Positions 4,786 through 61,644 of a DNA stretch of 64,000 nt are shown one piece after another. The position numbers and the translations under genes are program-made. Source of the stretch: Malacoraja senta. Lineage: Eukaryota. The DNA lies in the NCBI GenBank assembly GCA_038087875.1, contig CM075992.1:12774001-12838000 (forward strand), given 5' to 3'. A model generated the notes under the pieces. That model made no database searches, had not been told where the DNA came from, and saw only the letters and a list, made by a program, of their open reading frames with translations. How positions within the stretch are numbered: position 1 is the first letter of the stretch; each line of letters begins with the position of its first letter.

Positions 4786-4817
<32 letters not shown>

Positions 4818-5254: not shown

Positions 5255-5346
5255 GTCAACACTGTGCTGCTAGCTTGGACGCTCTGCATACTGAGGGAAC
5301 ATTTTGCCTCACGCAACAAGGAAGTGTCGAAGCTCAAAGAAACCAG
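5255..5346 (+). CDS. Adhesion GPCR exon, TM5-ICL3
   Basis: Acceptor ccctttccag|, donor AG|gtacgt, 92 nt, phase 0 in and phase 2 out. Encodes VNTVLLAWTLCILREHFASRNKEVSKLKETR, an ADGRE-type (N/S)xEVSxxxxTR loop. Confidence 0.9.
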
Positions 5347-6424
5347 GTACGTGGAGCAGAGAACATAGAACGGTACAGCACAGCAACAGGCCCTTCAGCC
5401 CATCATGTCTGTGCTGACCACGATCAACGTTGCATCTCATCCCATCTGCCTGCTTGTGGTCCATATCTCTCCATCCTCAGCCTGTTCAAGAGCCTGTCTG
5501 AATGTCTCTTAAAGATGACCATAGTAACTGCTTCCACCTCCTGTCCTGGCAGTACAGTCCAGGCCCCCATCACTGTGTAAAAACAACTTGCCTCTATCTC
5601 CTTTAAACATTCCCCCTTACACTTTAAACCTATGCCCTCTAGCATTTGACTCCCCCCCCCCTGAGAATAAAACTCTACCCACCTTACGTGTAGGAAGGAA
5701 CTGCAGATGCTGGTTTAAATTGAAGATAGACACAAAATGCTGGAGTAACTCAGCGGGACAGGCAGCATCTGTGGAGAGAAGGAATGGGTGACGTCACCAT
5801 TTATTCCCTCCACAGATGCTGCCTGTCCCGCTGAGTTACTCCAGCATTTTTTGTCTATCTACCCACCTTATCTTTGCTTCGCATCATTTTACGTTTTTCT
5901 ATCGCTCATCCCTCAGCCTCAGTCATTCAGGGGAACACAATCCCAGTTTGTCCAACCTCACCTTGTTGCTGAATCTCTCTGATCCAGCCAACATTCTGGT
6001 GAACCTCTCAAATCTCCTTTAACTTTTACCCTCTGTGCATGAAGCCATGCCCTTTGGTATGTGAGATTGCCACCCAGAGAAAGTATCCATCTTCTTTATT
6101 GACGCCCCTCATAAATTTATATATTTCTCATCAGGTCACCCCTTAGCCTCCGACATTCTGGAGAAGGCATTCCAAGTTGTTCCAAACTCTACTTACAGCT
6201 CAAACTCTCTAATCCTGGCAGCGTTCTGGTGAATCTTTTCTTCCCCCTCTCCAAATCCACCACAAACTTCCTGTGAACTGGTGACCAGAAATGCAGGCAA
6301 TGGTCCAAATGTGATCCCTGGTGACTGGGCTGAGGGACGGCAGGGTCCCAGGGTGGGTCTCTGTCCATGGTGCTGATCTCTGACCATGGTGACAATGGAA
6401 GTGGGGAGGGAAGCTGGATTAGTG

Positions 6425-6735
6425 TACAGATACAGCTTGGAACCAGGCCCTTCGGCCCACTGACTCCATGCTGACCATTGATCACCCATTCACACTAGTT
6501 CTATATCATCCCACTTTCTCATCACTCCCTGCACACTTGGGGCAATTTCCAATTAACCTATAAACCCACACGTCTTTGGGGTGTGGGAGGATACTGGAGC
6601 ACCCGAAAGAAACCCACGTGGTCACAGGGAGAACGTTCAAACTCCACATGGGCAGCACCCAAGATCAGGATCAAACCCGTGTTTCTGGCGTTGGGAGGTA
6701 GCAGCTCTACCAGCTGCAATTCTGTGCCGACCCTT
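6425..6735 (-). mobile_element. V-SINE (HE1-like) copy
   Basis: CR1-like 3' tail (caggcccttcggccca), the central ggtcacagggagaacgttcaaactcc segment, and a degenerate tRNA head (caggatcaaaccc = reverse B box). Confidence 0.75.
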
Positions 6736-6963
6736 AAGTCAGGATCAATTTCTTCATGATGATGTTCCCATTGACCTGCACAGGAAGAGGCCCTTCGGCC
6801 CACAATATCTGTGCCAATCAGATGATTATATGAAAGATGCACTGATTTTATAACTTGCTGTTGGGTGTTCAGAATACCCCAAGAGTATGAAATATCCCAC
6901 ATGGAATGAGTTTCTTCATGACAATGTTCCCATTGACCTGCTCTCTTCCCTCCTTGTGCACAG

Positions 6964-7132
6964 AACCCTGACCCTCAAGGCTGCCGCACGGATGCTTATT
7001 TTGGGAAGCACCTGGATCTTGGGAATATTCCAGGTGGATGAGAGTACCATGGTGTTGTCCCACTTGTTCACCGTCATCAACAGTCTACAGGGGCTGTTTG
7101 TTTTCCTCATTTACTGCGTCTTCAACCGCCAG
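6964..7132 (+). CDS. Adhesion GPCR exon, TM6-TM7
   Basis: Acceptor tgtgcacag|, donor CAG|gtgagg, 169 nt, phase compatible with the previous exon. Encodes TLTLKAAARMLILGSTWILGIFQ...LFTVINSLQGLFVFLIYCVFNRQ (LGxTW and NSLQG motifs). Confidence 0.93.
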
Positions 7133-7429
7133 GTGAGGAGAACCTCCGCAGAGAAACCTTCCCTCCTCTGATGCTGCTCTTTGCACTCTGACACGGCTGT
7201 GGTCAATGTTCACACCATCTTTCAATGACCCATGGACTGGGAGCAAGAATCGCCCACTTGCTCCTTCACATTCCCTCCGCCATTTAATAAGACCAGGCTG
7301 ATCTGATTGTGATCTCTCACCTTCGTTCCCATCCACCCTCGATCACCCTTCACCCCATCCTGATCCAGAAGCTCTCCATCTCTCTGGGAAGGTTTTCCAA
7401 GTGCCTGCTCCCACTGCCTTTTGAAGCAG

Positions 7430-9912: not shown

Positions 9913-10605
9913 GCGGAAGGTTCCAGACTCAAGGACAAGATTTATCTCAGTGGATTTTCCTCCTTTCATGCTCACTCAGTCGTTCCCCATCTCGCTCTGC
10001 TTTCCACCCCGAAGATTATGGATTGAAGTCACGCTCCAGTGGTGGGAGATTTACGTTTCAGGACTGCTCGCTCCTCCAGAGTTATTTGGCTCATCCTGGG
10101 CTTGTGAAAAGACACTGTAAAATGTAAGGCAGTGTCTGCAAGTGAGCTGATCAGGGAATGTGTGGATGAGCATTGGCTTTTGTGCATGTGACCACAAATA
10201 TATTTCTGGACTTTTGCTCATTTTCCAAGTTTTGCCCAACCATCCCGTGTTATTCAGCATTATTCCACTGGGGCAACATTGGTTGGCATCTGATCTGAAG
10301 TCAATGTCAGACCAGATTTGGACTTGACCTTATCCCAAACGTTGCAAACACAAGTGTGGACTGGTGCATGTGCACGGTCCAGATACACACAGATCATGTA
10401 CACATGTGTACACCACATACTAACAGATGTAACACACCTGCAAAACAGATCAGGACAGAACGTGGACATGTACACAATTCATAGAGTACACAGACACAGG
10501 TACACACAAAAACAGACATGCACACACATGCATGTACATATAGACACATACACTCACAGATGTGCACATACTCAGACGCACTCGCAGACATACACGCACA
10601 TGCAT

Positions 10606-11146
10606 GGGCCGATTGGACCGATTTCTCCCAATTGGGCCCCGCGCCTAAGGGGGCCCCGTGTTAATTTTTCGTATTTCATACGGAAATACAAATTCGCTTT
10701 GTTAAATAAAGATTAAAAAAGAAACACTCGCCATACTGATTTTTTTACAAAACGAACATGGATAACAACCGCTGCACGACCATCAGACACAAACGATTTG
10801 TTAGCTACTACTGTTAGCACTTATTAACAGCCAGTAGTTAACAAGTAGTTATACAATGTGTAATCAATGCATCGATCCACATTCCTCAGTAAATGTAATT
10901 GTGTTTTGAACAAGTATTAATGACGCTGCGTTCCTTTGAATACAATTCACGCTGCGTCATTAATACTTGTTCAAAACACAATTACATTTACTGAGGAATG
11001 TAGATCGATGCATTGATGACACATTGAGAATTTCTTAAAGCTCACCATCATGATTGAGAGTTTCTTCTTGGTGAGCTTCTTGGTGTGCAGCAGGTTAGTC
11101 ACTCAATTTACCTACCGACCCAAGTTGTGTCTGTCTTTCGCTCTCC
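10606..11146 (+). repeat. Left arm of ~540 bp inverted repeat (DNA-transposon end) containing a 73-bp-arm hairpin
   Basis: Reverse complement of 15579-16135, e.g. gattggaccgatttctcccaattgggccccgcgcctaagggg versus cccttaggcgcggggcccaattgggagaaatcggtccaatc. Confidence 0.88.
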
Positions 11147-15578: not shown

Positions 15579-16135
15579 GGAGAGCGAAAGACAGAGAGAC
15601 ACTACGTGGGTCGGTAGGTAAATTGAATGACTAACCTGCTGCACACAAAGAAGCTCACCAAGAAGAAGCCCTCAATCATGATGGTGAGTTTTAAGAAATT
15701 CTCAATGTGTCATCAATGCATCGATCTACATTCCTCAGTAAATGTAATTGTGTTTTGGAAAAGTATTAATGACGCCGCATGAATTGTATTCCAAGGAACG
15801 GCGTCATTAATACTTGTTCAAAACACAATTACATTTACTGAGGAATGTGGATCGATGCATTGATGACACATTGTATAACAACTTGTTAACTACTGGCTGT
15901 TAATAAGTGCGAACAGTAGTAGCTAACAAATCGTTTTTGTCTGATGGTCGTGCAGCGGTTGTTATCCATGTTCGTTTTGTAAAAAGATCCGTATGGCAAA
16001 TGTTTTTCTTAATATCTTTATTTAACAAAGCGAATTTGTATTTCCGTACGAAATACGGAAAATTAACGCGGGGCCCCCCTTAGGCGCGGGGCCCAATTGG
16101 GAGAAATCGGTCCAATCACCTTGAGACCGGCCCTG
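15579..16135 (-). repeat. Right arm of ~540 bp inverted repeat, hAT-like terminus
   Basis: Ends ...gagaccggccctg (CAGGGCCGG on the minus strand, hAT-like) and mirrors 10606-11146. Confidence 0.85.
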
Positions 16136-17745: not shown

Positions 17746-17864
17746 TTATACAAAATGATGAAAGGCATAGAAAGCGCGCACACTATGTAGTGTATATGAT
17801 GGTAACTAACTTTAAGAACTGAGTACTAATGGTACTAGACTAAGTGGGACCGTTGGGTCTCTGT

Positions 17865-20800
17865 CAAGTTCAAGTGAGTTTATTGTCATGTGTCCCTGAT
17901 AGGACAATTAAATTCTTGCTTTGCTTCAGCACAACAGAGCATAGAAGGCATTGACTACAAAACAGATCAGTGTGTCCATATATCATTATATAAATATATA
18001 CACACATGAATAAATAAACTGATGAAGTGCAAATAACAGATAATGGGCTATTAATGTTCATAGTTTTTTCCGAGCAAAGTTTAATAACCTGATGGCTGTG
18101 GGGAAGTAGCTATTCCTGAACCTGGTTGTTGCAGTCTTCAGGCTCCTGTACCTTCTATCTGAAGGTAGCAAGGAGATGAGTGTGTGCCCAGGATGGTGTG
18201 GGTCCTTTTTGAGGCAGCGACTGCGATAGATCCCCTCGATGGAAGGGAGGTCAGAGCCGATGATGGACTGGGCAGTGTTTACTATTCTTTGTAGTCTTTT
18301 CCTCTCCAGGGCGCTCAAGTTGCCGAACCAAGCCATGATGCAACCGGTCAGCATGCTCTCTACTGTGCACCTATAGAAGTTAGAGAGAGTCCTCCTTGAC
18401 AAACCGACTCTCCATAATCTTCTCAGGAAGTAGAGGCGCTGATGTGATTTCTTAATAGTAGCATCAGTGTTCTCAGACCAGGAAAGATCTTCAGAGATGT
18501 GCACGCCCAGGAATTTAAAGCTCTTGACCCTTTCAATCATCGACCCATTGATATAAACAGGACTGTGGGTCCCCATCCTACTCCTTCCAAAGTCCACAAT
18601 CAGTTTCTTGGTTTTGCTGGTGTTGAGGGCCAGGTTATTGTGCTGGCACCATATGGACAGTTGCTCGATCTCTCTTCTGTACTCTGAATCATCCCCATCA
18701 GTGATACGTCCCACAACAGTGGTGTCGTCAGTGAACTTGATGATGGAGTTCGCACTATGAGCGGCTATGCAGTCATGAGTATAGAGTGAGTACAGCAGGG
18801 GGCTGAGCATGCAGCCTTGAGGTGCTCCCGTGCTGATTGTTATCGAGTCTGACACATTTCCACCAATACGAACAGACTGTGGTCTGAGAATGAGGAACTC
18901 GAGGATCCAATTGCAGAGGGATGCGCAGATACCCAGTTCTGCGAGTTTGATAACCAGCTTGGAGGGGATGATTGTGTTAAATGCCGAGCTGTAATCGATG
19001 AATAACAGCCTGACATATGAGTTTTTGTTGTCCAAGTGGTCCAGAGCGGAGTGGAGGGCCAGCGAGATCGCATCGACCATTGATCTGTTGTGGCGGTAAG
19101 CGAACTGTAGTGGATCCAGGTTTTTGTCGAGGTAGGAGTTGATTTGCGCCATGATGAACCTCTCAAAGCACTTCATCACCACAGGCGTTAGTACCACAGG
19201 TCATTGAGGCACGTCACCTTGCTCTTCTTGGGCACTGGTATGATTGATGCCCTTTTGAAGCAGGTGGGAACCTCAGACCTCAGGTTGAAAATGTCCATAA
19301 AGACTCCAGCCAGTTGGTCCGCACAGGTTTTTAGAACATGACCAGGTATACCATCAGGCCCAGGCGCTTTTCGAGGGTTCACCCCTCTGAAGGATTTCCT
19401 GACGTCGGCCTCTGTGACTGAGACTGAAATACCATCACAGCGAATGGGAGCTCGGGAAGGCACATCAGTGTTCTCCCTATCAAAGCGTGCGTAAAAAGCA
19501 TTGAGCTCATCAGGCAGTGATGTTTCGCTGACATTCGAGCTGCCTCCTGATTTCGCCTTGTTGGAGATGATTGCATTCAGGCCCCACCACAGCTCCCAAA
19601 CATCTGTCTGATTCTCCAGTTTGGAGCAGGTCCCTTTTGGCCTTTTTGATGGCCTTACCAAGGTCGTATCTGGACTTCTTGTAGACCACTGTATCATCAG
19701 ACATGAATGCCCGGTGTCTGGTCTTCAGAAGAGTGCGGATCTCAAAGTTCATCCAAGGTTTCTGATTGGGAAAAATTCGGAAGGTTTTTGTAGGGATGCA
19801 GTCCTCCACACATTTCTTAATGAAGTCTGTAACGATTGTGGCGTATTCGTTCAAGTCCGTTGCCGAATCCTTGAACATTGCCCAGCCTACAGACTCCAAA
19901 CAGTGCTGTAGTTGTTCCTCTGCCCCCCCCCCCCCCCCCCCAGCTCTGCACTGTCCTCACCTCTTGGGGTGCGCTCTCTAATTGCTGCCTGTAGGCAGGA
20001 AGAAACAGCACGGATTTACCGAAGTGAGGGCGAGGGATAGAGCGATAGGCATTCTTGATTGTGGTGTAGCAATGGTCGAGGGTGTTTGGTCCTCTGGTGC
20101 AGCAGGAGACATGTTGGTGGAAGTTAGGGAGTGATTTCTTTAGGTTTGCCTTATTGAAGTCCCTAGCAATGGTGGTAAATGCCTCGGGGTAAGACGTCTG
20201 GTGTTTGTTGACCACGGCGTGTAGCTCCTCCAGTGCCAGATGGACTTCTGCCTGGGGTGGGATGTAGACCGCGGTCAGGATGATGGAGGTGAATTCCCTC
20301 GGAAGGTAGAAGGGACGACACTTCACCGCCAGATGTTTGAGGTGTGGAGAGCAGGAGTTGGACAGGACTGTTACGTCTGAGCACCGCGCAGAGTTGACCA
20401 TGAGGCAGACGCCCCCTCTCCCTTTCCCAGATGCCAGTGTACGGTCCATATCGTGGATGGAGAACCCTTCAGGCTGGACCGCTGAGTCTGGGGAGCTGGG
20501 GTGAGCCATGTCTCTGTGAAACAGAACACAGAGCATTCCCTCAGCTCCCTTTGATAAAGCAGTCTTGCTCTTAAGTCCTCCACTTTATTTTCAAGGGACT
20601 GAACGTTGGCCGGTAGGATAGTAGGGAGAGGGGGCCCAAGTCCCCTGCGCTTCAGTCTGACCTGAAGTCCTGCCCGCCGGCCACGTTTCCAGACACAATG
20701 GGGGCTTCCCCTTTGTTTCCAGGTACTAAGCTTTCTGTATCTGCTGATTTTGCGAACTTGCGCTGGAACGGGGATTTCTTCACAGACGGCAGCTCCAGCT

Positions 20801-21084
20801 CCGTAACGAAAGGGGGTTTCCTCAAAGTCGGCAGCTCCAGCTTCATTGTTCCTGGAAGATCCAGCCCGTCGGCTCTGGAGGTCATCTCGGGGTTTCCAGG
20901 TACCGTATCTGGGTTCCTCAGTCGGGTCCGGAGTTTTACAGCCAGCGTGGGAACATTTAAAGTCCGAAACGGCACCGTTTTCTGCCGTTTTCCAGATCCA
21001 GGTGACTTGATTGAATTTGTACCTAAGCCTTGTAGGTTCTGGTGCTCCGCAAAAGTCGCCGCAGGCAGGCGCCATCTTCGGATT
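17865..21084 (-). mobile_element. Near full-length but frameshifted Rex1/Babar-clade LINE (APE endonuclease + RT)
   Basis: Overlapping ORF pieces give LPTILPANVQSLENK and CFTETWL (APE), [56 protein letters not shown] and KFTDDT. The 3' end has aataaa and a (cttgaa)n-like tail at ~17865-17885. Confidence 0.92.
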
Positions 21085-21209
21085 CTTACGAGAGGCCTGG
21101 TCCTCCAACGCAACCCATTCCCCAACGCAATATTCCACCACTCACCCATAGCCCTTAACTGCGCAGGCACGGCTCATTTCCCCTCATCCCCAGTACTCCC
21201 TATCCCTCC

Positions 21210-22000
21210 TCTTCATGTGCGGGAAGGGGGGAGGGAAGTGGGGGGGGGAAATGAGGAGGAGTAGGAGGGTGGAGAGGGTGAGGGTAGTGTGCGGGGAGGG
21301 GAGGGGGGTGAGGTGTGAATGTGGGCAGGAGGGATGTGGGTGGTGTTGGGTGTGTGTGGGCAGGGGTGGTGTGTTGCCAGGAGGTTGTGGGGAAAGGGTT
21401 GTGGGGGGAGAGATTTGGGGTGTGGTGGAGGGGAGTGGATGGCGAGGTGTGTGGGGGCTTGGGAGCGGTGTGTGGGCGCGGGGGACTTGTGGGCTTGGGG
21501 AGGGTAGTGGGGGCCGGGGTGGGTAGTGGGGTTTGTGGGGGCGAGGGAGCGATGATTGTAGGGGGGGAAGGGTGTTGGGGCAGGGGGGTTGTGGGGCCGG
21601 GGGGGGGCGTTAGTGGGGGGAGGGGGAGTGGGCAGTTGTGTGTGTGGGGGGCGGGGTGTGTGGGCGGGGGATGTGTGTGGGCGGGGTGTGTGGGGGGCAA
21701 GGGTGTGGGGGGAGGGTGCATTGGGTGGGAGGGGTATGGTGTGGGGGAGGTGGAGTGTGGGCAGGGGGTGTGTGGGGGTGGCGTGTGGCGGGTGTGTGGG
21801 AGGATCGGGGTGTGGGCTGGGGGGGTATGTGTGGGTGGGGTGTGTGTGGGCGGGCATGTGGGCTTGTGAGGGGAGTGTTGTGTGGGCGGGGTTGTGAGGG
21901 AGTGGGGGTGTGTGGGCGAGGGTGTTGTGGGGGGATGGGTATGTGGGGGGGGGTTGTGGGGCGAGAGGGTTGTGTGGGGGGGAGAGTGCTTGGAGAAAAG
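21210..22000 (+). repeat. G/T-rich low-complexity tract (inside Helitron)
   Basis: About 800 bp of irregular GTG(G)n runs with very few A or C. Confidence 0.9.
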
Positions 22001-22553
22001 ACGGGGGAAGAGCCATTGGGAGAGGGCGGTATCAAGGGAGAGGGGAGCAGGAGCCAGTTAGAAAGACCAGAGGTGTAGGGGCTGGCGGTGCGATGGGTAC
22101 TCACAGCGGGCGCTGGGCGCTGGTCCTTCTCCTCTGCCGGGATCAGAGTCTCCACATTCCGTTTGGCGACATCTCCGACTCCAGGCTTGGCTGGGCTGAG
22201 CTGGGCCACTTGCTGTCACTCCGAAAATTGTGTCCAGTTGGAGACCTCCGCCAGCCATCCAGCGCGTCCCTTAGCTCCAGTAAAGACGCAATGGCGCAGA
22301 AAGGTGCGGACCATCCCGGGGAGTGACAGGAGAAGAGACTAATCTGCGTAGCGCTAACTGGCAGGAGAGGAGATCGATCTGCGCACGCGCGGATTTTAAG
22401 GTTTTTAAACCTCACTAACTTTTACAACATTCAACGGATCAGAATGAATCTTGGTGCACTCGAAGCACGGCGAGTGAGCTGGCGGAAAATCGTAGCACTA
22501 TCTCGTACCGTTTTTGCGCAAATAAATAACAAGATCAGAGTTTTAGTTATGTA

Positions 22554-22775
22554 CTAGACTGTGGGACCCATTGGGTCCCAGCATCACACGGGAGGGCTGG
22601 TCACCAACGCAATATTCCACCTCTCCACCAATTCCAATATTGCTCGCCAGTGGGGGGGGGGGGGGCTTTCTGTTGCGCTGGTATGGGTGTTGCGGGCCGA
22701 AGGTACTGGTTTCCAGAGGGCTAGCATAGAATGGATCCTTGGGCTGGCTGCCAACTTTTGCAACGATTTTAAAAG
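22554..22775 (-). mobile_element. Helitron 3' terminus leading directly into satellite 1
   Basis: a|ctagac at 22554 with the perfect hairpin gggaccc-att-gggtccc (22563-22579). It shares ccaacgcaatattccacc with the 17835 element. Confidence 0.75.
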
Positions 22776-25700
22776 CCAAGGCAAACAATTGGGCGGCAAC
22801 CAGCCACCTGACAACCAAAATTCATTATGTGAACACAAACTTCTTTTTTTTTTTTAAAGGCAAGGCAAACAATTCGGCAGCAATCAGCCACCTGACAACC
22901 AAAATTCATTTTGTGAACACAAACATGTTTTCAAAAAATGGCAAGGCAAACAATTGGGCAGCAAACAGCCACCTGACAACCAAAATTAATTTTGAGAACA
23001 CAAACTTTTTTTTTTTAAAAGGCGAGGCAAACAATTGGGCAGCAAGCAGCCAGCTGAGAACCAAAATTCATTTTGTGAACAGAAACTTTAAAAAAAAAAA
23101 GGCGAGGCAAACAATTGGACAGCAAGCAGCCACCTGACAACCAAAATTCATTTTGTGAACAGAAACATTTTTTAAAAAGGCAAGGCAAACATTTGGGCAG
23201 CAAGCAGCCACCTGACAACCAAAATTCATTTTGTGAACAGAAACTTTTTTTAACAAAAGTCGAGGCAAACAATTGGGCAGTAAGCAGCCACCTGACAACC
23301 AAAATTCATTTTGAGAACACAAACTTTTTTTTTTTAAAGGCGAGGCAAACAATTGGGCAGCAAGCAGCCAGCTGACAACCAAAATTCATTTTGTGAACAA
23401 AAATTAAAAAAAAAAAAGGCGAGGCAAACAATTGGGCAGCAAGCAGCCACCTGATAACCAAAATTCATTTTGTGAACACAAACTTTTTTTAACAAAAGGC
23501 GAGGCAAACAATTGGGCAGCAAGCAGTCACCTGACGACCTAGACTGTGGAACAGCATCCCCTTTCCCACCAGACTGTGGAACAGCATCCCCTTCCCCTCC
23601 ATCGACTCTTTTAAGTCAAGACTAAAGATTTATCTATACTCCCAAGCCTTTCCTGACGTCCTCTGAGTGAGGACTACATGTATATATGTATGTAGTTTGT
23701 TTTGTTTGTGCTATTCTTATAACAAATGTAAAGTACTTTGGCCAACGAGAGTTGTTTTTTAAATGTGCTATATAAGTAAATGTGACTTGACTTGACAACC
23801 AAAATTAATTTTGTGAACACAAACTTTTTTTTTTTATTAAAGGCAAGGCAAACAAATGGACAGCAAACAGCCACCTGACAACCAAAATTCACTTTGTGAA
23901 CACAATTTTTTTTTAAAAAGGCGAGGCAAACAATTGGGCAGCAAGAAGCCACCTGACAACCAAAATTAATTTTGTGAACACAAACTTTTTTTTAAAAAGG
24001 CGAGGCAAACAATTGGGCAGCAAGCAGCCACCTGACAACCAAAATTCATTTTGTGAACACAAACATAAAAAAAGGCGAGGCAAAAAATTGGGCAGCAAGC
24101 AGCCACCTGACAACCAAAATTCATTTTGTGAACACAAACTTTTTTTTTTTTTAAACGCGATGCAAACAATTGGGCAGCAAGCAGCCACCTGACAACCAAA
24201 ATTCATTTTGGGAACACAAACTTTAAAAAAAAAGGCGAGGCAAACAATTGGGCAGCAAGCAGCCACCTGAGAACCAAAATTCATTTTGTGAACACAAACT
24301 TTTTTTTTTTAAGGCGAGGCAATCAATTGGGCAGTAAGCAGCCACATGACAACCAACATTCATTTAGTGAACAGAAACTTTTTTTTAACAAAATGCGAGG
24401 CAAACAATTGGGCAGCAAGCAGCCACCTGAGAACCAAAATTCATTTTGTGAACACAACATTTTTTTTTAAAAGGTGAGGCATACAATTGGCCAGCAAGCA
24501 GCCACCTGACAACCAAAATTCATTTTGTGAACACAAACATGTTTTCAAAAAATGGCAAGGCAAACAATTGGGCAGCAAACAGCCACCTGACAACCAAAAT
24601 TAATTTTGAGAACACAAACTTTTTTTTTTTAAAAGGCGAGGCAAACAATTGGGCAGCAAGCAGCCAGCTGAGAACCAAAATTCATTTTGTGAACAGAAAC
24701 ATTTTTTAAAAAGGCAAGGCAAACATTTGGGCAGCAAGCAGCCACCTGACAACCAAAATTCATTTTGTGAACAGAAACTTTTTTTAACAAAAGTCGAGGC
24801 AAACAATTGGGCAGTAAGCAGCCACCTGACAACCAAAATTAATTTTGTGAACACAAACTTTTTTTTTTTATTAAAGGCAAGGCAAACAAATGGACAGCAA
24901 ACAGCCACCTGACAACCAAAATTCACTTTGTGAACACAATTTTTTTTTAAAAAGGCGAGGCAAACAATTGGGCAGCAAGAAGCCACCTGACAACCAAAAT
25001 TAATTTTGTGAACACAAACTTTTTTTTAAAAAGGCGAGGCAAACAATTGGGCAGCAAGCAGCCACCTGACAACCAAAATTCATTTTGTGAACACAAACAT
25101 AAAAAAAGGCGAGGCAAAAAATTGGGCAGCAAGCAGCCACCTGACAACCAAAATTCATTTTGTGAACACAAACTTTTTTTTTTTTTTAACGCGATGCAAA
25201 CAATTGGGCAGCAAGCAGCCACCTGACAACCAAAATTCATTTTGGGAACACAAACTTTAAAAAAAAAGGCGAGGCAAACAATTGGGCAGCAAGCAGCCAC
25301 CTGAGAACCAAAATTCATTTTGTGAACACAAACTTTTTTTTTTTAAGGCGAGGCAATCAATTGGGCAGTAAGCAGCCACATGACAACCAACATTCATTTA
25401 GTGAACAGAAACTTTTTTTTAACAAAATGCGAGGCAAACAATTGGGCAGCAAGCAGCCACCTGAGAACCAAAATTCATTTTGTGAACACAACATTTTTTT
25501 TAAAAAGGTGAGGCATACAATTGGCCAGCAAGCAGCCACCTGACAACCAAAATTCATTTTGTGAACACAAACATGTTTTCAAAAAATGGCAAGGCAAACA
25601 ATTGGGCAGCAAACAGCCACCTGACAACCAAAATTAATTTTGAGAACACAAACTTTTTTTTTTAAAAGGCGAGGCAAACAATTGGGCAGCAAGCAGCCAG

Positions 25701-28700
25701 CTGAGAACCAAAATTCATTTTGTGAACAGAAACATTTTTTAAAAAGGCAAGGCAAACATTTGGGCAGCAAGCAGCCACCTGACAACCAAAATTCATTTTG
25801 TGAACAGAAACTTTTTTTAACAAAAGTCGAGGCAAACAATTGGGCAGTAAGCAGCCACCTGACAACCAAAATTCATTTTGAGAACACAAACTTTTTTTTT
25901 TAAATGCGAGGCAAACAATTGGGCAGCAAGCAGCCACCTGACAACCAAAATTCATTTTGTGAACACAAACATAAAAAAAGGCGAGGCAAAAAATTGGGCA
26001 GCAAGCAGCCACCTGACAACCAAAATTCATTTTGTGAACACAAACTTTTTTTAACAAAAGGCGAGGCAAACAATTGGGCAGCAAGAAGCCACCTGACAAC
26101 CAAAATTAATTTTGTGAACACAAACTTTTTTTTAAAAAGGCGAGGCAAACAATTGGGCAGCAAGAAGCCACCTGACAACCAAAATTAATTTTGTGAACAC
26201 AAACTTTTTTTTAAAAAGGCGAGGCAAACAATTGGGCAGCAAGCAGCCACCTGACAACCAAAATTCATTTTGTGAACACAAACATAAAAAAAGGCGAGGC
26301 AAAAAATTGGGCAGCAAGCAGCCACCTGACAACCAAAATTCATTTTGTGAACACAAACTTTTTTTTTTTTTAAACGCGATGCAAACAATTGGGCAGCAAG
26401 CAGCCACCTGACAACCAAAATTCATTTTGGGAACACAAACTTTAAAAAAAAAGGCGAGGCAAACAATTGGGCAGCAAGCAGCCACCTGAGAACCAAAATT
26501 CATTTTGTGAACACAAACTTTTTTTTTTTAAGGCGAGGCAATCAATTGGGCAGTAAGCAGCCACATGACAACCAACATTCATTTAGTGAACAGAAACTTT
26601 TTTTTAACAAAATGCGAGGCAAACAATTGGGCAGCAAGCAGCCACCTGAGAACCAAAATTCATTTTGTGAACACAACATTTTTTTTAAAAAGGTGAGGCA
26701 TACAATTGGCCAGCAAGCAGCCACCTGACAACCAAAATTCATTTTGTGAACACAAACATGTTTTCAAAAAATGGCAAGGCAAACAATTGGGCAGCAAACA
26801 GCCACCTGACAACCAAAATTAATTTTGAGAACACAAACTTTTTTTTTTTAAAAGGCGAGGCAAACAATTGGGCAGCAAGCAGCCAGCTGAGAACCAAAAT
26901 TCATTTTGTGAACAGAAACATTTTTTAAAAAGGCAAGGCAAACATTTGGGCAGCAAGCAGCCACCTGACAACCAAAATTCATTTTGTGAACAGAAACTTT
27001 TTTTAACAAAAGTCGAGGCAAACAATTGGGCAGTAAGCAGCCACCTGACAACCAAAATTCATTTTGAGAACACAAACTTTTTTTTTTTTAAAGGCGAGGC
27101 AAACAATTGGGCAGCAAGCAGCCAGCTGACAACCAAAATTCATTTTGTGAACAAAAATTAAAAAAAAAAAGGCGAGGCAAACAATTGGGCAGCAAGCAGC
27201 CACCTGATAACCAAAATTCATTTTGTGAACACAAACTTTTTTTAACAAAAGGCGAGGCAAACAATTGGGCAGCAAGAAGCCACCTGACAACCAAAATTAA
27301 TTTTGTGAACACAAACTTTTTTTTAAAAAGGCGAGGCAAGCAATTGGACAGCAAGCAGCCAACTGACAACCAAAATTCATTTTGTGAACACAAACTTTTT
27401 TTTTTAAATGCGAGGCAAACAATTGGGCAGCAAGCAGCCACCTGACAACCAAAATTCATTTTGTGAACACAAACATAAAAAAAGGCGAGGCAAAAAATTG
27501 GGCAGCAAGCAGCCACCTGACAACCAAAATTCATTTTGTGAACACAAACTTTTTTTTTTTAAACGCGATGCAAACAATTGGGCAGCAAGCAGCCACCTGA
27601 CAACCAAAATTCATTTTGGGAACACAAACTTTTTTTTTTTAAGGCGAGGCAATCAATTGGGCAGTAAGCAGCCACATGACAACCAACATTCATTTAGTGA
27701 ACAGAAACTTTTTTTTTAACAAAATGCGAGGCAAACAATTGGGCAGCAAGCAGCCACCTGAGAACCAAAATTCATTTTGTGAACACAACATTTTTTTTTT
27801 TAAAAGGTGAGGCATACAATTGGCCAGCAAGCAGCCACCTGACAACCAAAATTCATTTTGTGAACAAACTTTATTTTTTTTAAAGGCGAGGCAACAATAG
27901 GGCAGCAAGCAGCCAACTGACAACCAAAATTCATTTTGTGAACACAATCTTTAAAAAAAAAAAAAGGCGAGGTAAACACAATTGGGCAGCAAGCAGCCAC
28001 CTGACAACCAAAAATGGTTTTGTGAACACAAACATTTTTAAACAAAAGGCGAGGCAAACAATTGGGCAGTAAGCAGCCACCTGACAACCTAGACTGTGGA
28101 ACAGCATCCCCTTTCCCATCAGAACTGTCCCCTCCATAGACTCTTTTAAGTCAAGACTAAAGATTTATCTATATTCCCAAGCCTTTCCTGACGTCCTCTG
28201 AGTGAGGGCTACATGTATATATGTATGTAGTTTGTTCGGTTTGTGCTATTCTTATAACAAATGTAAAGCACTTTGGCCAACGAGAGTAGTTTTTTAAATG
28301 TGCTATATAAATAAATGTGACTTGACTTGATAACCAAAATTCATTTTGTGAACACAATTGTGAAAAAATTGTGTTCACAAAATGAATTTTGGTTGTCAAG
28401 TCAAGTCAAGTCACATTTATTTATATAGCACATTTAAAAATTGTGAACAAACTTTTTTTTTTTAAAGGGCACGTCAAACAATTGGACAGCAAGCAGCCAC
28501 CTGACAACCAAAATTCATTTTGTGAACAGAAACATTTTATAAAAAGGCAAGGCAAACATTTGGGCAGCAAGCAGCCACCTGACAACCAAAATTCATTTTG
28601 TGAACAGAAACTTTTTTAAACAAAAGTCGAGGCAAACAATTGGGCAGTAAGCAGCCACCTGACAACCAAAATTCATTTTGAGAACACAAACTATTTTTTT

Positions 28701-30120
28701 TTTAAAGGCGAGGCAAACAATTGGGCAGCAAGCAGCCAGCTGACAACCAAAATTCATTTTGTGAACAGAAATTAAAAAAAAAAAGGCGAGGCAAACAATT
28801 GGGCAGCAAGCAGCCACCTGAGAACCAAAATTCATTTTGTGAACACAAACATAAAAAAAGGCAAGGCAAACAATTGGGCAGCAAGCAGCCACCTGAGAAC
28901 CAAAATTCATTTTGTGAACACAAACTTTTTTTTTTAAGGCGAGGCAATCAATTGGGCAGTAAGCAGCCACATGACAACCAACATTCATTTAGTGAACACA
29001 AACTTTTTTTAAACAAAAGGCGAGGCAAACAATTGGGCAGCAAGCAGCCACCTGACAACCAAAATTCATTTTGTGAACACAACATTTTTTTTTTAAAGGT
29101 GAGGCAAACAATTGGCCAGCAAGCAGCCACCTGACAACCAAAATTCATTTTGTGAACACAAACTTTATTTTATTTAAAGGCGAGGCAACAATAGGGCAGC
29201 AAGCAGCCAACTGACAACCAAAATTCATTTTGTGAACACAATCTTTAAAAAAAAAGGCGAGGCAAACAATTGGGCAGCAAGCAGCCACCTGACAACCAAA
29301 AATGGTTTTGTGAACACAAACATTTTTAAATAAAAGGCGAGGCAAACAATTGGGCAGTAAGCAGCCACCTGACAACCTAGACTGTGGAACAGCATCCCCT
29401 TTCCCATCAGAACTGCCTCCTCCATCGACTCTTTTAAGTCAAGTAAAGATGTATCTATACTCCCAAGCCTTTCCTGACGTCCTCTGAGTGAGGGCTACAT
29501 GTATATATGTATGTAGTTTGTTCTGTTTGTGCTATTCTTATAACAAATGTAAATCACTTTGGCCAATGAGAGTAGTTTTTTAAATGTGCTATATAAATAA
29601 ATGTGACTTGACTTGTCTTGACAACCAAAATTCATTTTGTGAACACAATTGTGAAATAATTGTGTTCACAAAATGAATTTTGGTTGTCAAGTCAAGTCAA
29701 GTCAAGTCACATTTATTTATGTAGCACATTTAAAAATTGTGAACAAACTTTTTTTTTTAAAGGGCAAGGCAAACAAATGCACAGCAAACAGCCACCTGAC
29801 AACCAAAATTCATTTTGTGAACACAAACTTTTTTAAAAAAAGGCGAGGCAAACAATTGGGCAGCAAGAAGCCACCTGATGACCAAAATTCATTTTGTGAA
29901 CACAAACTTTTTTTTAAAAAGGCGAGGCAAACAATTGGGCAGCAAGCAGCCACCTGACAACCAAAATTCATTTTATGAAGACAAACTTTTTTTTTTTTTA
30001 AAGGCGAGGCAAGCAATTGGACAGCAAGCAGCCAACTGACAACCAAAATTCATTTTGTGAACACAAACTTTAAAAAAGGCGAGGCAAACAATTGGGCAGC
30101 AAGCAGCCACCTGACAACCA
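22775..30120 (+). repeat. Satellite 1: ~75-80 bp monomer tandem array with ~1.0-1.2 kb higher-order repeats
   Basis: Core ggcgaggcaaacaattgggcagcaagcagccacctgacaaccaaaattcattttgtgaacacaaac plus a variable TnAm linker. Near-identical ORF-track translations recur at 23913/24947/26132 (offsets 1034 and 1185). Confidence 0.95.
23540..23793 (+). mobile_element. L2-like LINE 3' end in satellite 1 (copy 1; others at 28090-28328 and 29378-29619)
   Basis: Translates approximately as RLWNSIPFP..SIDSFKSRLKIYLYSQAF, followed by tgtaaagcactttgg...aaatgtgctatataaataaa and a (gactt)n tail. Confidence 0.8.
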
Positions 30121-30712
30121 CCTGCACAACTGCAGTAGGCTTGCAGGTGCAGCAGGCAGTGAAGAAATCGAATTGTTTGTTAGCATTCATAGCAAAAGGA
30201 TTTGAGTATAGGAGCAGGGAGGATCTACTGCAGTTGTACAGGGTCTTGGTGACACCACACCTGGAGTATTGCGTATAGTTTTGGTCTCCTAATCTGAGGG
30301 AAGACATTCTTGCCATAGAGTGAGTACAGAGAAGGTTCACCAGACTGATTCCTGGGATGTCAAGACTTTCATATGAAAAAAGACTGGATAGACTCAGCTT
30401 GTACTCGCTAGAATTTAGAAGATTGAGGGGGGTTCTTATAGAAACTTACAAAATTCTTAATGGGTTGGTTGGACAGGCTAGATGCAGGAAGATTGTTCCC
30501 GATGTTGGGGAAGTCCAGAACAAGGGGTCACAGTTTAAGGATAAGGGGGAAGTTTTTAGGACAGAGATGAGAAAAAACATTTTTCACACAGAGTGGTGAA
30601 TCTCTGGAATTCTCTGCCACGGAAGGAAGTTGAGGCCAGTTCATAGGCTATATTTAAGAGGGAGTTAGATGTGGCCTATGTGGCTAAAGGGATCAGGGGG
30701 TATGGAGAGAAG
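30121..30712 (+). mobile_element. CR1 RT fragment at the boundary of the two satellites
   Basis: QVQQAVKKSNCLLAFIAKGFEYRSREDLLQLYRVLVTPHLEYCV and LYSLEFRRLRG; stops, frameshifts and no 3' tail. Confidence 0.9.
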
Positions 30713-32843
30713 CAATTCAGGATGCAGCAAGGGACGGAAATTCAGGATGTGGAAAGGTACAAAAATTCAGGGTTCGAAAAGGTACGAAAATTCAGGACGC
30801 TAAAACGGAGGAAAATTTTGGACCCAAAAAGCACTGAAAATTCACCATTTGTAAAGGGTGACAATGTCAGGACGCGAAAAGCGAGAAAATTTTAGCAGAT
30901 GAAAGGCGACAAAAATTCAGCCTGTGAAAAGTGATGAAAATTCAGCATGAAAAAACCAACGAAAATTCAGCACGCAAAAAGCGAGGAAAATTCAGGCACG
31001 AAAGGCGACGAGAATTCAAAACGCCAAAAGCAATGTAAATTCAGGATGTAAAAAGCGATGAAATTTCAGGACGCATAATCGACGACAATTCAGGGCGCAT
31101 AAAACGACAAAATTTCAGGACGTGAAAAGCGACGAAATTTCAGCACATGAAAAGCGACGAAAATTCAGCCTGTGAAATGCGACGAAAATTCAGCCTGTGA
31201 AAGCGATAAAAAATCAGGACGCTGGAATGGAGGAAAAATGTGGATGCAAAAAGCACCGAAAATTCAGCATGTGAAAAGCGACGAACCTAGACGTATACAG
31301 TGACGAAATTTCAGCACGTGAAAAGAGAGCAAAATTCAGCATGCAAAACCGACGAAAATTCAGTACGCAAAAAGCGACGAAAATTTAGGACGCCAAAGAC
31401 AACGAAAATTCAAGATGCCAAAAGCAATGTAAATTCAGGATGCAAAAAGCGAAGAAATTTCAGCACGTGAAAAGTGACGAAATTTCAGCATGCGGAAAGC
31501 AATGGAAATTCAGCACGCGAAAAGCAAAAAAAATAAGCACACGAAAGTGATGAAAATTCAGGACACGAAAAGCAACAAAAATTTAGGACATGAAACGCGA
31601 CAACCATTTAGGATGCGAAACGGCATTAAAATTCAGGACGCAGAAAGGTAGGAAAATTCAGGGTTCGAAAAGTACAAAAATTCAGGACGCTAAAATGGAG
31701 GAAAATTTTGGACGCAAAATGCGATGAAAATTCAGCATTTGAAAACGTGGAAAATGTCAGGACGCGAAAAGCGACTAAATTTCAGGACGCGAAAAGCAAC
31801 AAAACTTCAAGGACGTGAAACGCGACAAACATTTAGGACGCAAAACGGGGTGAAAATTCAGGATGCAGAAAGGGACAAAAATTCAGGATGCGGAAAGGTA
31901 CGAAAATTCAGGGTTCGAAAAGGTACGAAAATTCAGGACGCTAAAACGGAGTACAATTTTGGACGCAAAACGCGACGAAAATTCAAAACGCCAGAAGCAA
32001 TGTAAATTCAGGATGCAAAAAGCGACGAAATTTCAGGACGCGTAAAGCGATGAAATTTCAGTACGAGAAAAGCGACGAAACTTCAGGACGCATAAAGCGA
32101 CGAAATTTCAAGACGTGTAAAGCGACGAAATTACAGCACAAGGAAAGAGACGTAAATTAAAAATGCCAAAAGCAATGTAAATTCAGGATGCAAAAGCGAC
32201 GAAATTTCAGGACGTGTAAAGCGACGAAATTTCAGGATGAGATAAGCGACAAAACTTCAGGACTCATAAAGCGACGAAATTTCAGGACGTGTAAAGCGAC
32301 GAAATTACAGCACAAGGAAAGAGACGTAAATTAGTAAGATTAAACGAGAACTTACCTAAGTTTGAAGTTTGATCTTTATTTTATGAGGAGTTACGTAGGT
32401 GATTACGTGAAGAACCCCGCCAGTGCGCCTGCGCATCAATCTTCAAAGCAGCGGTGTGAAATCACAAAAAACAACAACCGAAGTAATATAGTCTCATAAT
32501 AAAACGAGTAATACAAGAACTTCCATCTGACCTTTATGATAGTGGGTAGGGTCGTGGTGGGCACGTAATCACCTACGTAACTCCTCATAAAATAAAGATC
32601 AAACTTCAAACTTAGGTAAGTTCTCGTTTAATCTTACTATTTTACTTCGGAGTCACGTGAGTGACTACGTGAAGATTTTAAAGCTTTGTGATTTCATGCC
32701 GTGGATCAATCCCGGCTTCTCACTGCATAGATTGACTCGGAACGAGAATAATCAATCATGCATTCATAATAACATTTGTACCACAAATGCAGTATTTCAT
32801 TTCAATAATGAAATGAATCAGATCCCCTTTAAACCAGAGGAAT

Positions 32844-33703
32844 TTACACAGAACATAAAATAGTTTCTGCAAACAACCCCGCATTAACAATAGGCCGATG
32901 GTAAAAATGTTGAAACATCAACTCATTGGACCACCCGGCGGCTGCGAGGATATGGTCGACGGGGCCGTCTTTTGCCCTGGCCGCCGACGTTTCTGCTGCC
33001 CTAGCCGAGTGAGACGTAAAAACATAAGTGTTAATACCAGCAGCTGTTAAGACTTCTTTTATCCATCTGGAAATAGTCTGTATTGAAACTCTCTTGTGTG
33101 GTTTCTTGTGTGTGATCAACAACCCAGTTTCCGTATTCTCAAATTCTTTGTGACCTCAATGTATTGTAATAAATATGTCTTAATACAGAGACATGGATCA
33201 TTTGGATATGCTGCTAGCATAATTTTAAATCCTGTCACACCTGGGATAATTTAGTTTAGTAGGTCAATATAGAATGTAACCTTGTCTTCAGTTACTTCCA
33301 TACTGTCTATTTGTAATTTTCCAAGTGTTTGCACTCGTTGTGCTGTCACTCATGCCATAAGCATGAATACTTTCATACTGAGCTTGACCAAAGGTAAAGA
33401 CACACTTGATGACCATTCATGAAGTAGTTTCAGTACCACACTTACATCCCAGATTGTCACGTACCTAGGTTTCGGTGGTTTGGAATTAAAGATTCCTTTC
33501 ATTAGTCTGGAAACAATTGGGTGTGACCCAATTGAGTTTCTTTCTGAATCCAGAACCAAATATGAGGACAATGCACTTCTGGCTGAATTAATTGCACTAC
33601 AACTCAGACCTTCATCATAATAAAGTTTTGACAGAAATTCTAAACATTTGAAATATCTGCAGTACTTTATTGCACATTCTTTTGTACACAGAACTCTTCC
33701 CAT
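32844..33703 (-). pseudogene. DIRS tyrosine recombinase, frameshifted
   Basis: Pieces 33350..33703 (AINSARSALS...HPIVSRLMKGIFN..PPKPRY..WDV) and 32844..33122 (TISRWIKEVL..AGI..F.SHSAR) are separated by broken sequence. Confidence 0.88.
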
Positions 33704-34718
33704 TTCTTAATATAAGAAAGGTACTGTTTTTGAGTGCTCTTCCTCCCGGCTGCCGTAAGCATGTCCACAGTATGCTCAGACAGTCCTCGTCCCAGAAAAG
33801 GCATTCTTAAAACCTGCAAATCAACAAATCCAAACGATGATATAATGGATGTTGTTACCCTGTTACAGGGTGCAGCAATAAATTACTCCTTTTTGGGACT
33901 TTCATCAACATTTGTGTTGTTAATTCTAATATCAACAGATACCATGGCTGTATAGGCCAATCTGGTACTACCAATACCCTTGAAGCAGCATCTTGCCTGA
34001 TTTTAAGCAAACATTGGCTTATGAGGCAGAAAGGTGGAAATATATATGAAAACATACCACCCCAATGTAGCAAGAAAGCATCAATCGCCACTGCTCCTGG
34101 ATCTGGTTTCCATGAGACATATCTCAATAGCTGATGATTCAAGTCGATGTCGGTCATTCCAAATCTGATTACTATATCATTGAATACCTCTTGATTCAAC
34201 ATCCATTCTTTATTATCATGGAACTTTTCGTGACCAGGTGTCTGCTATCGTGTTCATTCTACCTGGTAGATAGATAGCTGAAAACCAAATGTTCTTTTCA
34301 ATACACCAAGATCAAAGTTGATTTAACCATTTTGTCACATGACACCGACTTAATTCCACCCATATCATTAATATAGGCAACTACTGTTGTGTTTATTAAT
34401 TTGAACTTGAACCTTCCTTTTAGTTGTGTTAGAACCATAAGCTTGGAGTCCATAGAAACCTCCTAAAAGCTCCAAATAGGTAATTCCCCATGTCTGCAGT
34501 AACACTAACTTTTCCTGATTCCATCTGCCTCCGCAGCTCCACGTTAAGTCAGTTGCACCCCCATCCTAGTGCACTGGCATCAGTTTGTAATATCATGGAA
34601 GGTTGTTCAATCAGCACTTTGCCTGAACTGCTTGAGACATGTAGAATCCACCACTGCAGCTTAGAAACAGCATTTGTTGTTACTTGCATGGTTCTATCAA
34701 AATCACCAGCATTTATTC

Positions 34719-35386
34719 TCAGTGCCTGTTCTTTAATTCTCTGCAGCTGTTGATAATGTAATGGTCCATACTGGACTGCTGGGAATCTACCAATTTTCCC
34801 AGTACTCGAGCCACCTGTCTGATTAGAGGTTTTTGCTCGTTTAACAGATTACTGCAATCTTTAATCAACTCCACCCTTTTTTCACTGGGCAAAGTAATTT
34901 GCATTTGGGCTAAATCAATTGTGAACCCCAAATAATTAATCGAGGTACATGTTTTTAACCTTGATTTCTTTGGATGAATTTAGAAACCCCCAAACTTTCA
35001 AAAGTTTGATTTTATTACTGCAACCGATGCTTCTGTTGACTGTTTTGTCCTTCCTATAATCAGGACATCATCCAGGTATGCCATTAGTACATGCCCCTGG
35101 CTCTCAGCAACCCCAGAATTGATTTTTATAAATATTCTGGAAGGGAACGTTAACCCTTTAGGCAGAGCTTTGAACTGCCCTAATTGGTTCATCCATGTAA
35201 ATTTAAAATACTCCATATCTTGCAAGTGAACAAACACTGAACAAAATGATTCAGACTTGTCAAGTCTATAATAATCCTACATCCTCCATCCTTTTTTGAT
35301 CGAGGGAATATATTTGACCCAAATTGGTGAATTTTGTAGACTGATTCTTTAATAACACCTTTTATATATAGGGTTTTGAAGCGCAA
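34719..35386 (-). pseudogene. DIRS reverse transcriptase, frameshifted
   Basis: KKDGGCRIIIDLTSLNHFV, FKALPKGL...AYLDDVLI and GFTID...ITLP lie in three separate ORF fragments. Confidence 0.88.
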
Positions 35387-38300
35387 CTTGAACCTCCATT
35401 ACTTCGCAAAGTGGAGAGTTCTGCTAGGAACATGCTGGACAGGCAAATCATAATTTGGATTGAAATCCTTGTATATTATTCAGAATTACCACATCTGAAG
35501 TAATCTTCTTCCAATGTTTATAGAAGAGACGTAATCTGCCTCCAACTTCTGGACTTAATCCAGTTAGTATGTTCCCCTGAGAACCAGGTCCACCTACCTC
35601 TTGAGTCATTTGAGTATTTTGAGATCCCTGGATTCTCCCGGAAGCACAACCACTTGTCCTTACTCCCGCTGCAGGCCGCCAGCTACGTCCCTGCGTTGAT
35701 GAGCGACTTGGTCCTGGTCTAGGATCCGTATGACGTCTGAAAGGATACTTCCTCTTTACAGACTTTGCAACCATTGATGTATTTATCAATCCTGTTTTCG
35801 CTTCATCTTCCAACTCTTTAATACGTCTCCCGAGATCTCTCCAAAGAGTAAGTTGGGTAATTGTATATTACTTGGTTTGCAGAGTGCTGCGAATTTCGGA
35901 TTCATAGTAGACCGTATAGCACTTTCCTCAGATAATTGATCTCGAAGTGGGTGCTGCATAGCAACCCCAGTGCTTGCTGATGCAACTTCGTCAATTTTTG
36001 GTTGTTACCTGCTATTCTGGTAAAAGCAGTTATTCCAGAACCCAGCAGCTTTAATATTCTCTGCAACTGATTCCAGATAATTTGATTCACTGCTGCTGCT
36101 TTCAGCAACCCACAGTTACTTCTTGCAGTCTCATCCATTTCCAGCTGTTCCAGCAAATGGTAAACCAAGTAATTTATTAAGGAGGCCAGTTCTTCTCCTA
36201 ATGGCTCTCCTGACCCTGACGGGGCAGCGAATCCTACTGCCAGGGGTGGAACATCTGGCAGCTGCCGTTCATCGCCTTGTACAGCCTCACCGTCAGAGTC
36301 GGGGTCTGAAATCTCATGACCCGTAGCACGCTCCTCATTCCTGAGGGTGCATTCCATCAGCCCTGAGCCAGGTGCTGTTAAGCTGCTCCTGCAGCTTGGA
36401 TTACAGTACACTCCTTCCTGAGTGAACTTTGCTCCAACAGCCTATGAAAAAGGCTTTCTATTTGGACAATACGCTCGAAAGCAGTATCTAGCCCTGTACC
36501 AGGAGCTGTTTGAGCTGTTTCCAGCAGCTTGGCTTTCAGAACACTCCTCTCTGAGTGAACTTTGCTCCAACAGCCTATGTAAAAGGCTTTCTATTTGGGC
36601 AATACGCTCGAAAGCAGTATCTAGCCCTGGAGCTACTTCCATTGCCTGGGACTCCCTCTGTTGGGATTTAAACTTTGTCTTTTGCCCGACAGGCGCTGAC
36701 TGTGTTTTCACCAGCCCCAGGTCCACAGTCGCTATGCTCACCGCTGGCGACTGTACCGGGGTTTAGAGGCGGTTGGTCTCTAACCGCGGACTCTCGACTT
36801 TCCCGACATCTGTCGGCTGTGTCGCTCGCCTCTTCCCCCTGTCCGTTTTTTCCATGGCGTCTGTGGAAAAAATCCCCATATACCCACAGTAAACGGACCT
36901 GGAAAACCTGAAAAAAGTTTTTACTTACCTTGTAGTTGAAAAACTACAAACCACTTGAGGAGCACTGCTCCTCACGTCCGTTTGCGTCAAGGTGTCTGAC
37001 GTAATGACGCGCAGGCGCACTGGCGGGGTTCTTCACGTAGTCACTCACGTGACTCCGAAGTAAAATCAAAATGCCAAAAGCAATGTAAATTCAGGATGCA
37101 AAAAGCGACGAAATTTCAGGATGCGTAAAGCGACAAAATTTCAGTGCGAGAAAAGCGACGAAACTTCAGGACGCATAAAGCGACAACATTTCAGGACGTA
37201 AAAAGCGACGAAATTTCAGCACATGAAAAGCGACGAAAATTCAAAACGCAAAAGCAATGTAAATTCAGGATGCAAAAGCGCCGAAATTTCAGGACCTGTA
37301 AAGCGACGAAATTTCTGGATGAGAAAAACTATGAAACTTCAGGAGTCAGAAAGCAACGAAATTTCAGGACCTGTAAAGCGACGTAATTTCAGCACATAAA
37401 AAGCGACGAAAATTCAAAATGCCAAAAGCAATGTAAATTCAGGATGAAAAAAACGACGAAATTTCAGGATGCGTAAAGCGACAAAATTTCAGGACAAAAC
37501 TTCAGGATGCATAAAGTGATGACATTTCAGGACGTGAAAAGCGACAAAATTTAAGCACATGAAAAGCGACGAAAATTCAGCCTATGAAAAGCGATTCAAA
37601 TTCAGTACGCGGAAAGCGACGAAAATTCAGCCCATGAAAAGTGACAAAAATTCAGGACGTGAAAGGCAATGAAAATTCAAAATGCCAAATGCGACGTAAT
37701 TTCAGCAAGAGATACGTGATGAAATTTCAGCACTGGATAAGTGACGAAATTTCAGCACGTGAAAAGCTAGGAAAATTCAGGATGCAAAAAACGACGAAAA
37801 TTCTGCACGCGAAAAGTGACAAAATTTCAGCATGCGGAAAGCAATGAAAATTCAGCACGCGAAAAGCAAAAAAATCAACACACGAAAAGTGACGAAAATT
37901 CTGGACTAAAAAGCTAAAAAAAATCAGGACATGAAACGCGACAAACATTTAGGACGCGATACGGGATAAAAATTCAGGACGCAGAAAGGGACAAAAATTC
38001 AGGATGCGGAATGGTACAAAAATTCAATGTTCGAAAAGGTACGAAAATTCAGGACGGTAAAACGGAGGAAAATATTGGATGCAAAAAACGACGAAAATTC
38101 AGCATTTGAAAACGGGGGAAATGACAGGATGTGAAAAGCGACGCAATTTCAGGACGTGAAATGCGACGAGATTTTAGCACAAGAAAATCGACAAAAATTT
38201 AGCACGCAAAAATTGACGAAAATTCACCATGCCAAAGGGGACGAACCTTCTGGACGTGAAAAGTGAAGAAATTTCAGCACGCAAAAAGAGAGAAAAATTA

Positions 38301-61575: not shown

Positions 61576-61644
61576 TTATACCTTCACCATGCGTGAATGC
61601 TTTAAAATCAAGTGGTCGAGTTTTATTGCTATATATACTCAAGC

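Follow-up and report, generated by a model that had tools for sequence, protein, structure and literature searches.

A 79-bp satellite array in a skate as the probable internal repeat of a canonical-type Helitron subfamily

The locus analysed here raises the question of whether a satellite that lies next to a Helitron end originated from that transposon or came to lie beside it in some other way. In the window, i.e. the whole stretch of 64,000 nucleotides that was analysed, a preliminary description had recognised a satellite array of about 7.3 kb growing out of a Helitron end, and had proposed that it was the amplified internal repeat of that Helitron family in a chondrichthyan. The host could be narrowed down to a skate. 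Among the exons of an adhesion G-protein-coupled receptor E-like gene (1511-7135, plus strand), exon 1511-1744 gave 32 matches, all of them in cartilaginous fishes, and the best were skates (Amblyraja 91%, Rhinoraja 87% and Leucoraja 86%). With regard to the satellite, we favour, at a probability of about 0.63, the reading that it is a Helitron internal repeat that expanded in place. The features on which the argument relies are collected in Table 1.

Table 1. Positions of the Helitron-like elements, the 79-bp array and its interruptions in the window.
Feature	Position	Strand	Remarks
Element C, complete sister element	3284-4917	-	5′ TC, 3′ hairpin and TTAG, between A and T
Element A, second Helitron-like element	17835-22553	-	split by a LINE at ~17866-21100; head-to-tail with element B
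3′ terminal CTAG of element B	22554-22557	-	T next on the minus strand
High-copy 3′ module of the Helitron-like family	22554-22748	-	depth in 4 of 4 runs
Subterminal hairpin	22562-22580	-	8-bp stem, 3-nt loop, 19 nt
Linker, 3′ module to first monomer	22749-22770	-	~22 nt; high-copy in public runs
79-bp tandem array	22771-30120	.	77 full monomers; 13- and 15-monomer higher-order blocks
LINE 3′ fragment, copy 1	23540-23792	+	short tandem tail, 8-bp target duplication
LINE 3′ fragment, copy 2	28090-28327	+	5′ truncation and monomer site as copy 1
Fold-back: inverted duplication of LINE tail and half monomer	28291-28440	.	arms 42 nt (98%) and 40 nt (100%)
LINE 3′ fragment, copy 3	29378-29618	+	14/236 differences from copy 1
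LINE fragment bounding the array on the right	30121-30714	+	itself interrupted by 25-bp satellite

We first consider the Helitron end. The reported terminus, a CTAG after an A at 22554-22557, was recovered, together with a hairpin that extends slightly beyond the 22563-22579 originally given. According to the available part of PMC4067079, a Helitron 3′ end reads in the order hairpin, CTRR and then T. Here the order hairpin, CTAG and T is found on the minus strand, indicating that this is the end of a minus-strand element (element B) and that the array is located on its internal side. Thus, the satellite lies inside the element and does not grow outward from its end, as had been assumed. The terminus motif was found once in the window compared to a mean of 0.2 across 30 shuffles, and the hairpin gave a z of -1.62, with 12 out of 200 shuffles equally good. 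The motif alone is modest evidence; the strong evidence is the terminus seen at read level. Public runs listed for the stretch amounted to 21, from 8 coded organisms and 10 studies, and 20 of them contained part of it. We used four of the 21, one per organism (A, B, C and E), for the region 22230-22905 at 85% likeness. Just left of 22561, loose ends were present in 187, 245, 181 and 175 contigs of the four runs, and their consensus ended in the same CTAG. Agreement among these ends was low (0.59-0.61), meaning that the flanks were unlike. Unlike flanks at a shared CTAG, as from many independent insertion sites, indicate that this is the true terminus of a family, and it was present in all four runs.

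The spacing between hairpin and CTAG was 4 nt in the window copy and 6 nt in family copies with two extra A, so that the hairpin ends 8 and 10 nt from the terminus, respectively; the two-base insertion behind 22560 was carried by 9-11 contigs per run. Terminus and first monomer are separated by 217 bp, in agreement with the ~220 bp estimated before. The absence of intervening sequence that had been stated is not supported, since the linker precedes the first monomer and, in comparison with the family, ~14 nt are apparently missing from the window copy near 22727. A loose end (X3) behind 22724 was found in 34 contigs. The linker had a single full match within the window, and its fold-back resemblance to the first monomer (76% over 34 nt, E 0.26) was not significant (z -1.23). 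Exact-pattern scans for the end module in metagenome and prokaryote collections and an Rfam search of 22000-24000 gave no match. An open frame across the junction of module and array served as a stand-in for further copies, and none of 4 candidates qualified; one match of this frame to a repetitive algal protein was spurious.

The class of the element was then assessed by comparison with its neighbours. The accessible text of PMC4067079 gives, as features of canonical (Helitron1 type) elements, a CTRR 3′ end and a palindrome of 16-20 nt located ~11 nt from the 3′ end. Element B presents CTAG at 22557-22554 and a palindrome of 19 nt, while its sister, element C, ends in TTAG, which is one base off. 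The canonical 5′ TC is present in element C; neither this motif nor any other 5′ end of element B was found in the window. Another LINE copy, at 5646-5492, matches the flanks of element C continuously over the point where they meet (71%, E 2e-13), revealing insertion between A and T with no target duplication. Element B shows the T after CTAG, and its other side is missing. The TT insertion and T-rich ends of Helentrons, HINEs and DINE-1 were not observed, as element B ends in CTAG followed by T and element C starts with TC after an A. Helentron-type elements also carry subterminal inverted repeats of 11-15 bp at both ends; of element B, a single end lies in the window. Consequently, the analogy with Helentrons and DINE-1 drawn in the preliminary description is structurally wrong, the ends being of the canonical TC...CTRR type. 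In our reading, element B would represent the 3′ portion of a skate Helitron that is non-autonomous and of canonical type. Eight of the 27 window ORFs, each of at least 150 aa, were scanned against Pfam; none of the eight contained a Helitron domain or represented a RepHel partner, and five matched retroelement-type domains.

Three Helitron-like ends are found within the 64 kb, and the 3′ end of element B abuts the 5′ tip of element A, not plain host DNA. The LINE that splits element A is 3.2 kb long, with near-intact reading frames and an RVT_1 match, and the body of element A at 22230-22551 was covered in the four runs. Element C is non-autonomous and sits inside a LINE, and its middle consists of G-rich and CA-rich low-complexity sequence. 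The 79-bp monomer was found neither in element A nor in element C.

As to the satellite itself, Tandem Repeats Finder located a period-79 array at 22771-29377 and 29737-30120 of the window. The array of about 7.3 kb described before is thus present, with a unit of 79 bp instead of ~78 bp. Splitting it into units yielded 81 unit anchors and 77 full-length monomers, with a median unit length of 79. The span is ~7.35 kb (7350 bp), of which ~900 bp is non-monomer sequence contributed by three LINE 3′ fragments and two fold-backs, the second of which ends at 29736. The first monomer had been called slightly divergent. Monomers 1 and 2 are indeed above the mean (10.2 and 10.4 versus 7.9 differences in homopolymer-collapsed cores), but several inner monomers are equally divergent (11-13 differences, maximum 13.0). 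The monomer had zero matches outside the array within the 64-kb window, and an exact-pattern scan for its core found nothing in metagenome, viral and prokaryote collections. A monomer dimer folded no better than shuffled sequence (z 0.34), so no special structure is claimed.

The three LINE fragments inside the array, which we take to be L2-like, share an identical 5′ truncation, target site and 8-bp duplication and show 8-14 differences over ~237 bases (for copy 2, 12/238 from copy 1 and 8/236 from copy 3). These shared features indicate that a single insertion was copied by older duplications. Three independent LINE insertions were rejected, since truncation and target are the same in all three. 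The first 11 nt of the element B terminus (plus strand, 22554-22564) are identical to the junction plus start of the LINE fragments at 23539, 28089 and 29377, which is probably a coincidence. The LINE fragment that bounds the array on the right is presumably CR1-like.

Several other repeats were observed in the window. A larger, 25-bp satellite extends over 30714-54918 as a ~17 kb array in several blocks with retroelement inserts. One of these inserts (32334-37064, 4.7 kb) has inverted and direct terminal repeat segments and is presumably a DIRS-type retrotransposon. Another (48556-50680) is a LINE with RVT_1 and weak zf-RVT matches and a poly-A tail, and the satellite sequence at ~48300-48555 recurs after it at ~50765-51020. 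Inverted copies of a ~500-bp stretch, ~4.5 kb apart, were noticed by eye at 10600-11120 and 15600-16130. In addition, a 58-bp minisatellite at 63101-63691 comprises 10.2 copies with 98% matches and a CTAG in each unit, and possible inverted-repeat ends of a DNA transposon lie at 58246-62841, where 10 nt also match linker positions 22746-22755.

The internal organisation of the 79-bp array was informative about its growth. Identical monomer types recurred at lags of 13, 15 and 28 monomers (11 of 63, 13 of 61 and 11 of 49 pairs, respectively). The 13- and 15-monomer blocks differ at 2/950, 1/873 and 1/872 aligned bases, while the segments containing LINE copies 2 and 3, each with its fold-back, show 19/812 differences. 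Blocks differing by 1-2 of ~900 bases indicate that the core was amplified recently, and such near-identical blocks may also be an assembly artefact. The pattern suggests that the array grew where it lies, presumably through unequal exchange or template switching. An origin of the array as a rolling-circle concatemer of truncated elements was rejected, because no repeat of the linker or of the 5′-end motif was found inside the array.

To what extent the Helitron end, the linker and the monomer belong together was evaluated from the depth of the same four public runs, expressed as summed contig depth, which is not copy number. The 3′ module reached summed depths of 1e5-3e6 in bins 22552-22735 in the four runs. 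Linker depth at 22764 was 276516 in organism A, 7988 in B, 67295 in C and 21382 in E; as this position is located outside the monomer, the high depth indicates that the linker is itself a repeat. Depth dipped in bin 22736-22758, which is partly expected from the ~14 nt that the window copy seems to lack. This bin had a constant 0.41-0.46 of the linker depth in all four runs, while the ratio of linker to module depth varied ~15-fold (0.40-0.70 in organism A, 0.15-0.34 in C and 0.025-0.054 in B and E). Since the bin tracks the linker while the ratio of linker to module varies, its depth comes from copies that carry the linker. A toy model, for which the known terminus served as calibration, placed the left break of these copies at ~22736-22744, within the last part of the 3′ module. 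A break at 22746-22749 also fits the depth ratio if contigs there are long, in which case linker and module would not be joined. None of the 32 contig pieces listed, beyond which 52052 more exist, spanned 22724-22771. Altogether, linkage between the linker and the 3′ module is favoured on the basis of summed contig depth.

A break at the later position would suit an explanation that we consider unlikely, namely that linker and monomer form a different dispersed element, e.g. a terminal-inverted-repeat DNA transposon starting at ~22744-22749, which either integrated into a truncated Helitron end or became fused to it. The 10 nt at 22746-22755 recur at 58249 and, inverted, at 62837-62828, looking like the two ends of one element; depth is reduced immediately to the left of the linker, and the window copy carries a deletion nearby. 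Nevertheless, the match is limited to those 10 nt (E 3.1), the putative end diverges in its three outermost bases, and the terminus calibration favours short contigs and hence a break further left. Moreover, a loose end before 22749 was absent among the 24 listed (1732 more exist). The high-copy linker also bears on a second alternative, in which an independent 79-bp satellite came, by chance or recombination, to lie beside one Helitron end out of very many. A non-monomer linker that is high-copy in four organisms would not arise from a single junction event, and no second CTAG/TC boundary or A/T site exists between module and array. We therefore regard juxtaposition as very unlikely, even though the end module occurs in extreme abundance, the repeats of this region are nested in a disorderly way and the monomer depth of organisms B and E is for the most part unmatched by linker depth.

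The four organisms differed markedly in monomer content. The ratio of monomer to linker depth at 22809 was 3.0 in organism A and 2.3 in C, compared to 173 in B and 77 in E. The share of the window-type allele at 22800 was 0.29 and 0.10 in organisms A and C, and 0.82 and 0.86 in B and E; that of a 4-nt shorter monomer variant was 0.35 and 0.36, and 0.11 and 0.10, respectively. These values fit short internal arrays in organisms A and C and an amplified 79-bp variant in B and E. Alternatively, the linkers of organisms B and E could have diverged below 85% likeness. Linker depth reached 4-66% of end-module depth across the four organisms, which suggests that the end module is common to subfamilies, many of them without the body seen here; the module probably serves several subfamilies, most of which lack the monomer. 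Hence, the proposal that the monomer is an internal repeat of this Helitron family is probable on summed contig depth, seemingly for one subfamily only. It also follows that taking a majority of end-free arrays and of monomer-free ends as a sign of chance adjacency, as the preliminary description did, is too strict, as most ends may lack monomers without chance being involved if one subfamily has them.

The same data are relevant to the reverse direction, in which an older satellite monomer was captured and dispersed by the Helitron subfamily and was not born from it. An end module seemingly common to subfamilies with different bodies would be in line with capture, and the linker may be few-copy in those organisms that have the most monomer; the available part of PMC12628747 describes how Helitrons capture tandem repeats. 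In organisms A and C, however, there are few monomers per linker, the shorter variant is commoner (35-36% vs 10-11%) and the window-type allele is rarer (10-29% vs 82-86%), a pattern that fits later amplification of one variant. We regard capture as quite unlikely.

Expansion in place of a Helitron internal repeat, the reading that we prefer, could have proceeded as follows. One subfamily would carry an internal tandem repeat of 75-79 bp at ~217 bp from its 3′ end, and short copies with few monomers would have been spread by a RepHel transposase acting in trans. One such copy, to judge from the sequence, would have inserted between A and T in the 5′ tip of element A. The internal repeat would then have grown in place to ~80 units, presumably by repeated segmental duplication, the pattern of which is visible in the array. 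An early round may have copied the LINE insertion three times and the fold-back twice, and a recent round may have produced the near-identical 13/15-monomer blocks. In the window, the 5′ part of element B is missing, and the array gives way to a LINE fragment and another satellite. In this reading, the Helitron would be the source of the seed and would have determined its placement, while most of the length would derive from ordinary tandem-repeat turnover and not from rolling-circle replication. Points against this reading are the low linker/module depth in organisms B and E, which are the carriers of the window monomer type, and the absence of the monomer from elements A and C. A broader scenario, which is possible but doubtful, is that of a skate-wide canonical-type Helitron subfamily with 2-3 units per element in some species, from which the 79-bp variant escaped in others into long higher-order arrays (~80-170 monomers per linker).

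The skate array probably resembles known cases, namely CgiSat01 of oysters, DINE-TR1 of Drosophila, for which Dias et al. 2015 is reportedly the reference, and Heli2Xen of Xenopus. Long expanded arrays, as in the oyster and DINE-TR1 pattern, are represented here by 77 full monomers over 7.35 kb. With regard to the short monomer arrays between both ends that belong to the same pattern, the depth ratio gave 2-3 monomers per linker in organisms A and C, and no spanning contig was present among the 32 pieces listed. The oyster CgiSat01/Cg170 and Cg_HINE arrays also lie beside a conserved Helitron end box, one-sided cases being common in the portions available of PMC8268682 and PMC7492417. The longest element-associated CgiSat01 array given in the available text of PMC8268682 has 89 monomers, compared to ~80 here. 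According to the accessible parts of both sources (PMC8268682, PMC7492417), Cg_HINE elements are of Helentron type, with subterminal inverted repeats, T-rich targets and monomers of 140-180 bp, whereas element B has canonical ends and a 79-bp unit and resides in a vertebrate. DINE-1/DINE-TR1 is likewise a non-autonomous rolling-circle element whose central repeats are tied to satellite emergence, but it has 13-bp subterminal inverted repeats and TT targets (PMC4067079, available part), in contrast to the hairpin, CTAG and T of element B and the 5′ TC and A/T site of element C. Heli2Xen is a vertebrate Helitron whose non-autonomous copies consist largely of 166-bp tandem repeats; in the part of PMC12001565 that was available it is of Helitron2 type, with 2-7 repeats per reported array. 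Element B differs from it by Helitron1-type ends, an array ten times longer by copy number and higher-order structure. Finally, the rolling-circle tandem Helitron arrays of plants (Xiong et al. 2016, as cited in the available text of PMC12628747 and PMC8268682) similarly have a single 3′ end flanking a long array, but repeat the 5′ ends of truncated elements, none of which recur here. The accessible part of a review presents expansion of Helitron/Helentron central arrays as a common example (PMC12628747).

A literature search that was largely without subscription papers or supplements found no description of a Helitron-borne satellite in skates, and the family may already be catalogued in Repbase/Dfam. 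In flies and oysters, it is established that satellites can be born from the internal repeats of Helitrons, and short arrays have been reported in Xenopus. The skate array implies neither a new mechanism nor a function. It would extend this process to elements with canonical ends and to cartilaginous fishes, and the direction of the process could become testable through the differences in monomer/linker ratio between species. If the broader, skate-wide scenario were true, skates, as a slowly evolving vertebrate lineage, would show the birth of a satellite from a transposon in graded steps from one species to the next, and LINE insertions inside the arrays would serve as internal clocks.
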